A stretch of DNA of 32,000 nt, from the NCBI RefSeq assembly GCF_000009965.1, contig NC_006624.1, forward strand, positions 1,680,001 through 1,712,000, read 5' to 3'. Shown piece after piece: positions 6,178-32,000 of this stretch; within the stretch, counting starts at the first letter, position 1; the number at the start of each line of letters is the position of its first letter. Made by a program: the position numbers and the translations under genes. The notes under the pieces are model-generated. The model saw nothing but the letters and a program-made list of their open reading frames with translations, was not told the origin of the DNA and made no database searches. The DNA is from Thermococcus kodakarensis KOD1. Lineage in GTDB: Archaea; Methanobacteriota_B; Thermococci; Thermococcales; Thermococcaceae.

Positions 6178-6198
6178 TTCCAGTGGAAACCAAACTCC
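6178..6198 (+). promoter_or_regulatory. ORB-type box TTCCAGTGGAAACCAAACTCC (origin-recognition-box core without G-string) upstream of trpS
   Basis: The 21-mer is identical to the one at 25552-25572 and shares the dyad plus AAAC..AACTC extension with the ORB boxes at 31324-31674. It lies 15 nt upstream of the trpS ATG. Confidence 0.5.
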
Positions 6199-25504: not shown

Positions 25505-25551
25505 GGTCATCACCGTGTTGATTGGGCGCTTGGATAATATAAGGGTTGCCT

Positions 25552-25572
25552 TTCCAGTGGAAACCAAACTCC
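25552..25572 (+). promoter_or_regulatory. ORB-type box TTCCAGTGGAAACCAAACTCC between the divergent mtnP and PAC2 core promoters
   Basis: Identical to 6178-6198. It is flanked by a minus-strand TATA (CTTATATTAT, ~25531-25540) and a plus-strand BRE/TATA (GAAAG-TTTAATAA, ~25573-25585). Confidence 0.5.
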
Positions 25573-27531: not shown

Positions 27532-30042
27532 TCAGTCCTCGACTCCCTTCTCGGTTATCCTGAAGACCGCCTCCCCCTCGGGAAGGTGCGGGCTGTCTAT
27601 CAGGCGAGCGACCCTCTTTCCGGCCTTGCCCTTACGGAGATAGACCCTGAGAGTGGCGCTGTGGGCTAGGATGTGGCCGCCGACAGGCCTCGTAGGATCA
27701 CCGAAGAAGGCATCCGGTTTCGCCTGAACCTGGTTGGTTACAAAGACCGCTATGTCGTAGAGGTCTGCCAATCTGTGGAGGTCGGCGAGGTGCTTGGCGA
27801 GCTTCTGCTGCCTCTCAGCCAACGTGCCTCTTCCCACGTACTCGGCACGGAAGTGCGCCATGAGTGAATCCACGACGAGAAGTTTTACAGGCCTGTCGCT
27901 CTCAGCCTTCTCCTTGATTATCTCCTCGGCCTTCTCGACGAGGAGCATCTGGTGGTTGCTGTTGAACGCCCTCGCAACGTAGATGTTCTTGAGGGTCTCC
28001 TCAGGATCGAGGCCGCGGTTTTCGGCGATCTGCTTTATCCTCTCAGGCCTGAAGGTGTTCTCAGTGTCAATCCAGATGACGGAACCGCCGAGACCACCTT
28101 CCTCGGGCGGCTTCTGAACCATGACAGCAAGTGTGTGGGCGAGCTGGGTGTTGTGGAGCACGAGACCGTTCGGTGCGATGAAGTTGTGGGTCTCTGGAAT
28201 GACCAGATCGTAGACCCAGTCGTTGTAGTCAACGACCTCAACGGACGAGACTTCGTGGAACTCCAGCCTTCTCGCGAGCTCTATCGTTTCTAGGGCAAGC
28301 TTTGCAACTCCCTCCAACCTCTCAATCTCCTTGAGGAGCGCTGAAACAACTTTCTCCTTCAGCTCGGGCCTCTTTGGAAGTCCTCTCGTCCGGTAGTTCG
28401 CCACCTGCCTGTCTGTAAAGCCGTACTTCGTGATGGCCGTCCACGGGAACGGGAGCTCGGGTTTATCGCCCATTTCCAGTGCCTTTCTGGCCTCGGAAAG
28501 CTTCTCAAGGGCTTCCCTAAAGTATTCTTCTATCCTGGAGAGAGTCTTCTCGGTGAACCACACATTCCTGCTTCTCGTGAGTATGTGGTAAGCCGTCTCA
28601 TTGTCCCTCTTAGGCAGTCTGAACTCCGAGTAGAGCTTTCCAAGGAACTTGCCCAGGGCGGGTGGATACCTGCCAACGCCGCCCTCGTTCATCTCGCCCG
28701 GCTTTATGCGGCTCTTCTCAAGGACTTTCTCGAAGGTCTTCCTGTCTTCACCCGTTATGTAGATGCGGTAGTAAACGCTTCCCTCGATTGTTTTCTGAGA
28801 GATCCTCGGAGTTATTCCAAGCCTCTTAAGTAGGAAGACAAGTCCATCGGCGAGCTCACGGCTCTTTGTGACCAGCTCAACTATTGACTCGGTTAAATAG
28901 CCATCCCCATCCAAGTATCCAGCCAGAAACGCCGCGATGGCAGATTCTCCAGCGTTCAGCACTCTCTCGGGAACGACTTTCGTTGATGCGTTTGACGTGG
29001 CAAGCTCACCGAGCCACTCGGCGGTCTTCTTTCTAAAGAGTATCCTGTAGAGACCGCGTCTTACCTCAACCGTCGGAGTGTAGCCGTCGTGATCTTCGAT
29101 AAAAGAAACTATGAAGTCCTTAAGCTCCTCGGATCCTGTTGTTATGGAGAGCGGGTTCGAAGTACCCTCGGCAACGAACAGGCCGAGGAAGTAAGCCTCG
29201 GACTCCTCAATGGTAGCTGCGTTAGCAGGAACGCTTCTTATGCCAACGATCAGGTCACCCGGCTTGATCATGCCAGCTGGAACCCACTGGAGCCCGTTCC
29301 TGAAGACGAGAACCGGATGCAGTAGCGTGATCCTGAGGAGATATCCATTGGAAAGCCTTATCTCGGCAAGCTTCTCGACCTTTTCACGGTATATGTAAGA
29401 GGCCTTCGTCCTCTTTACCTCACCTGTTTTAGGGTCAAATGTGTAAACCGAGACCGTTTCCAGTGGAACCGCGTAGCCGTTGTCGAATGGAACCTCTCTT
29501 CCGAGGGATGCGTATTTGTGATACATATCCTCGATGGACTCAAAGTGAACTAGCGTATCGTTCTCGTAGTAGACCTTGGTGTCCTTTGCGAAGCACTTTC
29601 CACTGCCGAACTCACCGAATACCTCCGTGATGGCCTGCGTCTCAATGCCGCCGCCCAGGAGCTTGTCGAGGGCTTTGCTTCCAGTGGAAATCTTGCCTAT
29701 TGTGGTTCTCCTCTTCATGTACTCGTCGGCGCGCATGAAGGTTCCAATGTTAGCTGCCTCTCTTGCGGCCTGGATGATCTTGAGTGCGGCACCTTCGCTT
29801 ATCCCCGCTATCTCCTTAAGCTCCAGCGGCGAGGCAACCGCTATTGCCTCTATCGTGTCGTAACCAGCCTCGCGAAGCTTTTCAGCGGTGGCAGGACCAA
29901 CGCCAGGGAGATCCTCAAGAGCGGAGATTTTTTTCTCTGGCTTTGACTGCTTATCCGACGATGAAAGTGACTCTTCAACATCGAGCTCTTCAAACTCCTC
30001 AAGCTCTTTGACTTCATCTTCAACCTTCTTTTTGCGGGCCAT
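27532..30042 (-). CDS. radA: DNA repair and recombination protein RadA, interrupted by one intein
   Basis: HhH N-terminal domain ([27 protein letters not shown]). Walker A is split as GEFGSGK|C...HN|TQLAH. Walker B is KLLVVDS. The C-terminal RecA fold is intact. Exteins total ~354 aa. ATG 30042 was chosen after GGGTGATGATG. Confidence 0.95.
28150..29595 (-). mobile_element. RadA P-loop intein (482 aa) with LAGLIDADG homing-endonuclease domain
   Basis: It begins with Cys (CFAKDTKV, codon 29595-29593) and ends with HN (codon for N at 28152-28150), followed by the +1 Thr. The two LAGLIDADG blocks are [11 protein letters not shown] and [12 protein letters not shown]. Length is exactly 1446 nt, in frame. 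Confidence 0.9.
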
Positions 30043-30218: not shown

Positions 30219-31250
30219 TTAAATGCCGTTATCCCCAACCTCCCGAAGGACTATGAGCTTTGAACCCTCTGGAACCGGGGAGTCAAGCCTTGGAACGAGC
30301 ACTGGGCGGTTGGTGTAGTAACCCATCACGTACAAATTATACTTCCTCTGAACCAGCTCAAGCGCTTCCGAGTACTTCACACCCCAGACTTCTGGGAGTT
30401 CAACCACGGTGATGTCGTACCCTCCAAGGGAGCTTGTTATGTCGTCAATGACGTCCACAACTTCAGGCTCGATGACGGCGCTGGCGAGCAGCCTACCCGC
30501 TAGACCTCTGCTGAGGATAACCCTGTCGGCCCCAGCCTGTTTCAACAGGTCTATGCTGTCCGCGCTCAGGGCTTCCACGAACACCTTTGCACCGGAAATG
30601 CTCTTGACACGGAGGGTCACGAAGACCGACTTCGAGTCATCGTCGAGAGCCAGAACAACATGGGAAGCACTCTCGACCCGGGCCCTTTCGAGTGTCTCCT
30701 TATTGATGGGGTCACCTATAAGAACCTCGACTTCCTCTGGAAGCTCAACCTTCCTGCGCTCTTCTTCGTTAGGGAATACCACAACAACTGGCCTGTGGGG
30801 AACCTCTCCTCGGCCCATCGCAGAGAGTATCTCGTCCACAAAGCTGGCCACGCTACTACCCTGCCCGATTACAACGTAATGTCCCGAGTACCCAACACGG
30901 TGCATGCCCATCATCCTCCTAAGTGAGGAAGAAATTAGGAATTCAGCCAGAAGGGAAACGAGGGCCGTAAAAGTAGAGATGCCCGCGACCGCCGCAACCA
31001 TAGCAACTATTCTTCCCGCCTCCGTCTGAGGGGTTATATCACCGTAACCTATCGTCGCCATGGTTATTACGGCCCAGTAGAAGGCAGTGAAGAAGTCCAG
31101 CCCTTCAAAGTACGCAAACAGTCCGGCAAAGACTAAGGAGAGAACTATCACAGCAGCACCTATCTGTAGGAGCTTGCTCCGCCTCACCCGATATCTAATC
31201 TTAACAAGCCTGCGGATTACAGTTATCGGTATCATCGTTGTGGTGTGCAT
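30219..31250 (-). CDS. Potassium channel with C-terminal RCK/TrkA-N domain (MthK-like)
   Basis: Two TM segments plus a pore loop carrying the selectivity filter TIGYGD. The RCK Rossmann motif is VVIGQGSSVASFV. An alternative start at Met6 (31235) would fit a TATA-like TTTTTAAC at ~31262. Confidence 0.85.
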   Translation of the reverse strand: MHTTTMIPITVIRRLVKIRYRVRRSKLLQIGAAVIVLSLVFAGLFAYFEGLDFFTAFYWAVITMATIGYGDITPQTEAGRIVAMVAAVAGISTFTALVSLLAEFLISSSLRRMMGMHRVGYSGHYVVIGQGSSVASFVDEILSAMGRGEVPHRPVVVVFPNEEERRKVELPEEVEVLIGDPINKETLERARVESASHVVLALDDDSKSVFVTLRVKSISGAKVFVEALSADSIDLLKQAGADRVILSRGLAGRLLASAVIEPEVVDVIDDITSSLGGYDITVVELPEVWGVKYSEALELVQRKYNLYVMGYYTNRPVLVPRLDSPVPEGSKLIVLREVGDNGI

Positions 31251-31323
31251 GCAAGGGGTTAAAAACGTTGGGACGTGGTTAAGTGAACTTTAATGAACAT
31301 AAGAATACCACTAGGCACAAGTT

Positions 31324-31344
31324 TTCCAGTGGAAACGGAACTCT
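31324..31344 (+). repeat. ORB box a (no G-string): TTCCAGTGGAAACGGAACTCT
   Basis: Dyad TTCCAGTGGAA plus the AC..GAACTCT extension. It forms an 18/21 inverted repeat with 31373-31393. Confidence 0.75.
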
Positions 31345-31366
31345 TTTTCGATACTCATCGAAAAGA

Positions 31367-31393
31367 CCCCCCAGAGTTTTATTTCCACTGGAA
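31367..31393 (-). repeat. ORB box b (full, with G-string): TTCCAGTGGAAATAAAACTCTGGGGGG on the minus strand
   Basis: The reverse complement of 31367-31393 gives dyad + AAACTCT + G6, matching the archaeal ORB architecture. Confidence 0.8.
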
Positions 31394-31399
31394 CCAACT

Positions 31400-31645
31400 T
31401 TCGGAGAATGGATGGATTTGATGGCTTTAAACAACAGAAAGGGTATTTTTAAAGCGTCTGTGTCAATGTAAATATGATTTTGTTCATTTAAACTTTGTTC
31501 TTTCAGTATTTTTTCAATCTTACATCTTAATACCCGCTAATTATTGAACATTGTTTATGGAAAATTATAAATACATGATGGGAAAGAAAAAGCGGGAGTG
31601 TTTGCACCAAAATTCGATATTGAAAATGGGTGTAGCAACGAAAGC
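31400..31645. other. AT-rich candidate duplex-unwinding element (DUE)
   Basis: It lies between the inverted ORB boxes b and c, whose dyad ends face it. It contains long A/T tracts (e.g. TATTTTTAAAG, TTCAGTATTTTTTCAATC, AAAATTATAAATAC). Confidence 0.65.
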
Positions 31646-31648
31646 TGC

Positions 31649-31674
31649 CTCCACTGGAAACAGAACTCTGGGGG
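31649..31674 (+). repeat. ORB box c (full, with G-string): CTCCACTGGAAACAGAACTCTGGGGG
   Basis: Dyad + AAAC..GAACTCT + G5 on the plus strand, in inverted orientation relative to box b. Confidence 0.8.
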
Positions 31675-31784
31675 ACTACAAAATTGTTTATTTTTTGAGA
31701 TTGCGAAAACAAAGATGTTTTCTAAAAATGATCCCTTTTGTCCATCATTGTTCGTGTTTTCATGTATATCCCTGTTCATTCCTC

Positions 31785-31797
31785 TTTCAGTGGAAAT
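31785..31797 (+). repeat. Degenerate mini-ORB TTTCAGTGGAAAT
   Basis: One mismatch to the dyad core. Weaker copies lie at 31913-31926 (TTCGAGTGGAATTC) and 31985-31994 (TTCCAGTGTA). Confidence 0.5.
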
Positions 31798-32000
31798 AGG
31801 CACACCTACCGATGTTTTGTTTGTCTAATGCAAACTTGTATGTGCATCCCTGATCATTGCTTGCTTCGCGTTTCCTCTGGAGAGGTCTTTTTGCACAGGT
31901 TAGAACTGGAACTTCGAGTGGAATTCTTTGACAGCTCCATGTTCAACAATCCATATAAACCAGCGGCCTACACATAGGTATGCCTTCCAGTGTATCCGCT

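Follow-up and report, generated by a model that had tools for sequence, protein, structure and literature searches.

The intergenic region between the K+ channel gene TK1900 and cdc6 (TK1901) of Thermococcus kodakarensis KOD1, at the right end of a 32,000-nucleotide (nt) stretch of chromosome that we analysed (the window: NC_006624.1, positions 1,680,001-1,712,000), is very probably oriC of this organism (we put the probability at about 0.88), a canonical Orc1/Cdc6-dependent archaeal origin of the Pyrococcus/Thermococcales type. Two origin recognition boxes (ORBs) face each other there across an AT-rich duplex unwinding element (DUE), and the gene of the initiator follows. The origin is canonical in structure, conditionally used and dispensable. 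As an origin call it is nothing new, the locus having been published, predicted, deleted and profiled. The presumptive T. kodakarensis origin reportedly appears in Fukui 2005 and in Ojha and Swati 2010. The published presumptive origin, which is also that of Matsunaga 2007, Cossu 2015, Gehring 2017 and Moalic 2024, occupies the same locus, flanked by TK1900 and TK1901. An earlier note on this DNA, made from its letters, had called the origin unannotated: the reading as an origin is supported, but the locus was already the published presumptive oriC of KOD1. Positions below are those of the window, and adding 1,680,000 gives the NC_006624.1 coordinate, a conversion with which the supplementary gene coordinates of Jager 2014 agree. 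Sequence beyond the window was taken from a public contig (L001), which matches the final 11,782 nt of the window with 100% identity and brings the extended sequence to 41.2 kb.

Three long boxes (a, b and c; Table 1) lie in the 922-nt intergenic region (31236-32157), exactly at the coordinates, on the strands and with the sequences reported for them in the earlier note. An inverted repeat (31368-31403 and 31639-31674) has boxes b and c as its cores; its 36-nt arms are 83% complementary and stand 235 nt apart. The dyads of the two boxes, as read from the sequence, point inward to the AT-rich core, just as the note had described, and the G-runs point outward. In their extended forms, ORB1 and ORB2, boxes b and c are identical to each other at 30 of 38 positions. 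Boxes a and b make up a second inverted pair (21-nt arms, 86% complementary), and box a, the spacer that follows it and ORB1 together constitute an imperfect palindrome of ~70 nt (31324-31393). Quantification of such motifs revealed 6 matches in the window to the 20-nt pattern TCCANTGGAAANNNAACTCT with at most 2 mismatches (0.02 expected; 0 of 100 shuffles reached 6) and 28 matches to the 12-nt dyad (3.4 expected). Across the 922-nt intergenic region there were 8 dyad sites with at most 2 mismatches, compared to 0.56 expected (0 of 500 shuffles reached 8). The stretch from box c to cdc6 held 5 mini-ORBs, compared to 0.25 expected (0 of 500 shuffles reached 5), which bears out the claim that degenerate mini-ORBs continue to the window edge.

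Work on the Pyrococcus oriC is said to include Myllykallio 2000 and Matsunaga 2001 and 2003, and work on the Sulfolobus oriC1 to include Robinson 2004 and Samson 2013. The KOD1 boxes match the ORB type bound by Cdc6, with a dyad (TTCCAnTGGAAA), AACTCT and a G-string; ORB1 is identical to the P. furiosus ORB1 oligonucleotide at 33 of 38 positions and ORB2 to the P. furiosus ORB2 oligonucleotide at 26 of 38. Purified Cdc6 binds the P. furiosus ORB1, ORB2 and ORB3 oligonucleotides (half-maximal at ~110-240 nM) and binds a lone mini-ORB weakly, and chromatin immunoprecipitation on microarrays (ChIP-chip) in P. abyssi found oriC to be practically the sole Cdc6 target (Matsunaga 2007, PMC1904270). 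Like the oriC of P. abyssi and P. furiosus, the KOD1 locus has two inverted ORBs of ~34-36 bp around AT-rich DNA, multiple 13-bp mini-ORBs, cdc6 directly downstream and then the PolD genes, and a second cluster of ORBs and mini-ORBs within dp1 (TK1902). In this second cluster, perfect TTCCANTGGAAA dyads stand at 33586, 33922, 34018 and 34108, and the 20-nt ORB pattern is matched perfectly at 34009-34028 (extended coordinates). With one cluster in the intergenic region and another in the 5' part of dp1, cdc6 sits between the two, and this two-cluster organisation of oriC and dp1 has been stated to be conserved in T. kodakarensis (Matsunaga 2007, PMC1904270). The two genera differ on the other side of the origin, where Thermococcus has radA (in KOD1 together with the K+ channel gene), whereas in Pyrococcus radA is not syntenic (Cossu 2015, PMC4640148).

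The DNA between ORB1 and ORB2 is the least stable of the extended sequence. A nearest-neighbour stability scan placed the least stable 150-bp duplex stretch of the 41.2 kb in the DUE core (31426-31576; 24.5% G+C) and the least stable 100-bp stretch at 31469-31569. The G+C count that had been made by hand for 31441-31560, 33 in 120 nt, is exact, compared to 51.35% for the whole window. On the cdc6 side of ORB2 there is a second AT-rich stretch, and the oriC of P. abyssi is likewise described with two AT-rich regions (Matsunaga 2007, PMC1904270). We also considered other kinds of element in this interval. Over the ORB blocks, tblastn similarity to relatives occurs in all six frames, indicating that the intergenic region is conserved at the DNA level and not at the protein level, and a small conserved protein gene in the origin was thus ruled out. 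A structured non-coding RNA was ruled out by the lack of any Rfam match in the origin region at E<=1 and by the lack of a conserved structure in the transcript that starts at 31597 (consensus fold -3.6 kcal/mol, 0 compensatory pairs; z = -0.56 compared to shuffles).

The gene content around the region is that of a Thermococcus origin. The earlier note had predicted an orc1/cdc6 gene within ~1 kb, followed by the PolD genes, and cdc6 begins 158 nt past the window end. Its 415-aa product is an Orc1/Cdc6 protein with AAA+, Cdc6 lid and WHD_Cdc6 domains, which an exact protein look-up identified as KOD1 Cdc6 (BAD86090.1 / WP_011250852.1); PolD DP1 and then an intein-containing PolD DP2 lie downstream. 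The placing of the origin next to radA has to be amended, for radA (TK1899) does lie on that side, but the directly adjoining gene is TK1900 and radA is one gene further away. The gene order is radA, TK1900, oriC, cdc6, and radA was upstream of the origin in 15 of 15 relatives examined. An archaeal origin and its flanking initiator gene are thus recoverable from sequence alone, and a base-resolution map of the origin was obtained (Table 1).

The locus has counterparts in other Thermococcus genomes. A Cdc6 search of species-representative genomes yielded 27 Thermococcaceae loci, all from metagenome-assembled genomes and the best at 96% identity. A minus-strand ORB and a plus-strand ORB lie 252-268 nt apart around an AT-rich core in 16 of the 27 (KOD1 spacing, 257 nt), and the minimum 100-nt G+C of these 16 cores is 14-32%; the recurrence of the pair, like the identity to the P. 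furiosus boxes, favours the ORB-type architecture that had been proposed from the letters. An alignment of KOD1 with 15 of the 16 ORB-pair loci revealed a common footprint consisting, in order, of box a with the TTTTCGAT/ATCGAAAA spacer, ORB1, a variable AT-rich stretch, TGAACAWTGTTCATAGAAA-NN-TATAWATA, GGGAGTGTTT..CACC and ORB2. At least 7 relatives (L002, L003, L005, L006, L008, L011 and L018) have a counterpart of box a, which stands 48-49 nt outside ORB1, and in relatives the counterpart of the dp1 ORB lies at +1572 to +1806 from cdc6. The synteny of radA, K+ channel gene, oriC, cdc6 and PolD is conserved across Thermococcus, and every Thermococcus genome surveyed by Cossu 2015 (PMC4640148) has its oriC between cdc6 and radA. 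Five more distant loci (L023-L026 and L028; Cdc6 83-85% identical) lacked both a dp1 ORB and any long ORB up to 4 kb from cdc6, which fits the situation in T. litoralis and T. sibiricus, where oriC is separated from cdc6 (Cossu 2015, PMC4640148).

By analogy with characterised archaeal origins, Cdc6 (TK1901) monomers would bind each ORB with fixed polarity, and the weak mini-ORBs would add cooperative occupancy of low affinity. ATP-bound Cdc6 on the two inverted ORBs would then recruit MCM onto the intervening AT-rich DNA, which would melt, and bidirectional replication would start. The introduction of Dhanaraju 2025 (PMC12141716) describes a similar arrangement for the Sulfolobus oriC1, with three ORBs of which two are inverted around the DUE; each inverted ORB binds one Orc1-1 monomer with polarity and is individually required, and Orc1-1-ATP is sufficient for MCM recruitment. 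The Sulfolobus chromosome differs in having three origins with distinct initiators. According to published work on T. kodakarensis, use of the origin is conditional: no firing is detectable during exponential growth, when replication is started by RadA-dependent recombination, and a marker-frequency peak appears in stationary phase under some conditions.

Several observations weigh against an active origin at this locus. Binding by Cdc6 (P. abyssi and P. furiosus), DNA melting and mapped initiation points have been reported from Pyrococcus alone, and we found no report of T. kodakarensis Cdc6 binding to the ORBs in the accessible literature. Marker-frequency analysis of strain TS559, in which the origin and cdc6 are intact, showed no peak anywhere on the chromosome (Gehring 2017, PMC5663688), and KOD1 in log phase was likewise without a peak (Moalic 2024, PMC11005403); the Pyrococcus origin, in contrast, is detectably used in log phase. 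The earlier note had proposed to look for an exponential-phase read-depth peak at the locus and had itself named the absence of one as grounds for giving up the origin, and absence is literally what both studies reported. In addition, cdc6 alone, or cdc6 together with a 640-bp part of the origin that holds one ORB and three mini-ORBs, could be deleted without a growth phenotype, and radA and radB could not be deleted (Gehring 2017, PMC5663688). Deletion of the ori region did shorten long-term viability by ~40 days, but this phenotype was unaffected by keeping Cdc6 (Gehring 2017, PMC5663688), so it may not be Cdc6-mediated. As for the skew inflection that had been anticipated, cumulative G-C over the 41.2 kb of extended sequence does reach its minimum at 31210, at the left edge of the origin, with negative skew leftward and a skew of +0.077 rightward, but this local change is confounded by the divergent gene orientation, and GC skew has been reported to be unreliable in Thermococcales (Cossu 2015, PMC4640148).

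The missing log-phase peak, the lack of a growth phenotype on deletion and the Cdc6-independence of the viability phenotype would all be expected of a relic origin, whose architecture is inherited and at which no meaningful initiation occurs now, selection keeping instead the promoter control of cdc6-PolD and TK1900 or the transcripts of the DUE. Two mapped transcription start sites (TSSs) within the DUE, one of them with a promoter conserved in 16 of 16 sequences, and a mini-ORB abutting the region of the cdc6 start codon point the same way. We nevertheless consider a relic improbable. Stationary-phase KOD1 cells have a marker-frequency peak at 1,712,000 (about window position 32000, the right edge), exactly at the position of the origin, and deletion of oriC in T. 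barophilus abolishes the peak there (Moalic 2024, PMC11005403); moreover, sequence, orientation and spacing of ORB1 and ORB2 are tightly conserved in 16 genomes, which promoter regulation alone does not predict. The reading of the locus as oriC stands despite the absent log-phase peak, since a peak is found at the same position in another growth state. T. kodakarensis keeps a canonical origin and its initiator yet grows without them through recombination-dependent replication, a conclusion that is already in the literature.

An ordinary divergent promoter or regulatory region, in which the TTCCANTGGAA dyads are operators for a transcription factor with no role in replication, is very unlikely. 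TSSs are indeed present in the region, the same dyad recurs as a 21-nt box in two promoter regions at distances of 6 and 25 kb, and 9 metagenome loci retain it upstream of their TK1895 orthologue; the boxes of the intergenic region, however, are a near base-for-base match to Pyrococcus sites that bind Cdc6, lie on either side of the least stable stretch of the 41 kb, adjoin cdc6 and are paired with the ORB cluster in dp1, and a read-depth peak maps to the locus. Two further readings deserve almost no credence: that the repeats arose by chance in an AT-rich spacer of low complexity, or that the origin belongs to a mobile element that integrated here. Nothing but the AT-richness of the region speaks for either, and both are refuted by the shuffling controls (0 of 100 and 0 of 500 shuffles reached the observed motif counts) and by the conserved synteny, with no integrase or mobile-element genes among the neighbouring genes.

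Table 1. Map of the probable oriC locus of T. kodakarensis KOD1 in window coordinates; positions above 32000 are extended coordinates.
Feature	Position	Strand	Sequence or remarks
radA (TK1899)	27532-30042		chromosome 1707532..1710042
TK1900, K+ channel	30219-31235/31250	-	chromosome 1710219..1711250
TK1900 leaderless transcription start, left border of intergenic region	31236..31266	-	TSS 1711236(-), corrected ATG (Jager 2014 Table S4)
Box a, short 23-bp-type ORB	31324-31344	+	TTCCAGTGGAAACGGAACTCT; dyad TTCCAGTGGAAA plus AACTCT, no G-string; inverted relative to ORB1
Spacer, box a to ORB1	31345..31366	.	small palindrome TTTTCGAT-N5-ATCGAAAA; partly conserved in the 16-sequence alignment
ORB1 (box b, extended)	31367..31403	-	CGAAAGTTGGTTCCAGTGGAAATAAAACTCTGGGGGG; dyad end toward DUE, G-string distal
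Box b core	31367-31393	-	TTCCAGTGGAAATAAAACTCTGGGGGG
DUE	31404..31638	.	235 nt between the ORBs, 30.6% G+C
Origin-internal promoter 1	31445..31476	+	TATA-like ATTTTTAAA (31445-31453); mapped primary TSS 31476
Origin-internal promoter 2	31545..31610	+	palindrome, B recognition element (BRE)/TATA, mapped primary TSS 31597, GGGAGTGTTT..CACC block
ORB2 (box c, extended)	31639..31674	+	CGAAAGCTGCCTCCACTGGAAACAGAACTCTGGGGG; dyad end toward DUE
Box c core	31649-31674	+	CTCCACTGGAAACAGAACTCTGGGGG
Second AT-rich stretch, cdc6 side of ORB2	31680..31780	.	28.7% G+C
Degenerate mini-ORB	31785-31796	+	TTTCAGTGGAAA
Degenerate mini-ORB	31871-31882	-	CTCCAGAGGAAA
Degenerate mini-ORB	31913-31924	+	TTCGAGTGGAAT
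Remaining intergenic part in window	31925..32000	+	runs on to 32157; cdc6-PolD operon promoter region
Mini-ORB past window end	32084-32095		
Mini-ORB past window end	32137-32148	-	L001 9088-9099; just before cdc6 ATG
cdc6 (TK1901)	begins at 32158		chromosome 1712158..1713405
Second ORB cluster, inside dp1 (TK1902)	33586-34119		L001 7117-7650

The DUE contains more than AT-rich DNA. Two candidate small-RNA starts, TSS 1711476(+) and TSS 1711597(+) (Jager 2014 Table S6), both fall within the interval from ORB1 to ORB2. Upstream of the first, roughly half of the 16 aligned sequences share a TTTATAAA-like box in the corresponding place (alignment read by eye). The second promoter had been placed from the alignment alone, and the mapped TSS at 31597 proved to lie ~27 nt downstream of its TATA element TATAAATA (31566-31573), which belongs to a BRE/TATA-like GGAAAAT-TATAAATA at 31559-31573; just before it is the palindrome TGAACATTGTTTA at 31545-31557 (TGAACAWTGTTCA in relatives; palindrome block TGAACATTGTTCA). 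The whole block, with palindrome, BRE/TATA, fixed spacing and a GGG/AG start (GGG|AG), is kept in 16 of 16 aligned origins, and the rest of the DUE varies. The transcript from 31597 runs through ORB2. It was scored as conserved in T. kodakarensis only (Jager 2014), which fits the absence of conserved structure, the promoter DNA being what is conserved.

The main text of Jager 2014 never mentions oriC or Cdc6, and in the accessible text of the published origin descriptions (figures excluded) we found neither internal TSSs linked to the origin nor the palindrome/promoter block, and no reference to box a as a further ORB. The internal TSSs, one of them with a conserved promoter, and the ORB-like boxes at distant promoters described below, may be new as side observations. 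The 922-nt intergenic region holds 6 copies of the palindrome half-site TGAACA (often WTTGAACAT), at 31294, 31481, 31545, 31773, 31940 and extended 32025, compared to 0.63 expected, and the whole 41.2 kb holds 25; we know of no factor that binds this motif.

Tentatively, and with the odds against it, we suggest that the Thermococcus DUE is also a conserved transcription unit, and that the promoter or a palindrome-bound factor gates the conditional firing of the origin or explains the Cdc6-independent viability phenotype. Such a gate, if it existed, would make for an origin that is silent in log phase and active in stationary phase, and it would be comparable to transcriptional activation at bacterial origins and to the Sulfolobus ucm/UBP element. 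The ucm is a conserved accessory motif within the Sulfolobus DUE that is essential for firing, according to Dhanaraju 2025 (PMC12141716). We rejected the idea that the conserved DUE block is a ucm, since no resemblance is visible between ucm (ATTATACAAAC) and the TGAACAWTGTTCA/TATA block of Thermococcus. The 640-bp deletion of Gehring 2017, whose end-points we inferred, would have kept the promoters of TK1900 and cdc6 and taken out only one ORB, and would then have removed both internal promoters. The conserved promoter and palindrome within the DUE offer a handle on what switches the origin on and off.

The mini-ORB closest to cdc6 (32137-32148) ends ~10 nt before the ATG and overlaps the likely Shine-Dalgarno sequence GGAG. 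It is degenerate in KOD1 (CTCCACTTGAAA) and a clean CTCCA(C/G)TGGAAA in most relatives, which suggests that Cdc6 could regulate its own expression.

Away from the origin, at distances of 6 and 25 kb, there are two identical copies of an ORB-like 21-mer, TTCCAGTGGAAACCAAACTCC. One copy (6178-6198) precedes the ATG of TK1874, which encodes a class-I tRNA synthetase of the Trp/Tyr type, by 15-36 nt. The other (25552-25572) has an overlapping inverted copy, making a double box at 25542-25572, and lies between the TATA-like elements of the divergent genes TK1895 (phosphorylase) and TK1896 (PAC2). Among the metagenome relatives the dyad is kept in 9 of 9 loci that have TK1895 and TK1896 as divergent neighbours and is absent where PAC2 has another neighbour, indicating that it belongs to the TK1895 side. 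Cdc6 might also be a transcription regulator at the TK1874 and TK1895 promoters and, if this were true, the keeping of a dispensable initiator would be explained.

Similar boxes were found at radA. In L002, L003, L005, L011, L013 and L021 (degenerate in L014), a TTCCACTGGAA dyad precedes the radA ATG by 130-195 nt; in several relatives the strongly conserved radA promoter GAAAAGTATATAACC lies downstream of it, and the primers used for a radA promoter swap in T. barophilus contain the same kind of box (PMC11005403). Since KOD1 lacks such a box upstream of radA, we did not retain it as a general feature, and it is not part of the KOD1 origin locus. Perfect mini-ORB dyads inside radA (29457 and 29679) were also rejected as a third functional cluster; they probably coincide by chance with the codons for VPLET and ISTGS.

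At the left border of the intergenic region, the TSS at 31236, with a TATA-like TTTTTAA ~25 nt upstream of it, makes the TK1900 mRNA leaderless on the ATG at 31235. TK1900 was originally annotated in KOD1 with 343 aa, and the start at 31235 gives a 338-aa product identical to RefSeq WP_048053875.1; in the exact protein look-up the 343-aa form had no match and the 338-aa form matched. Finally, both radA and the gene for PolD DP2 (L001 227-5623) carry LAGLIDADG inteins.

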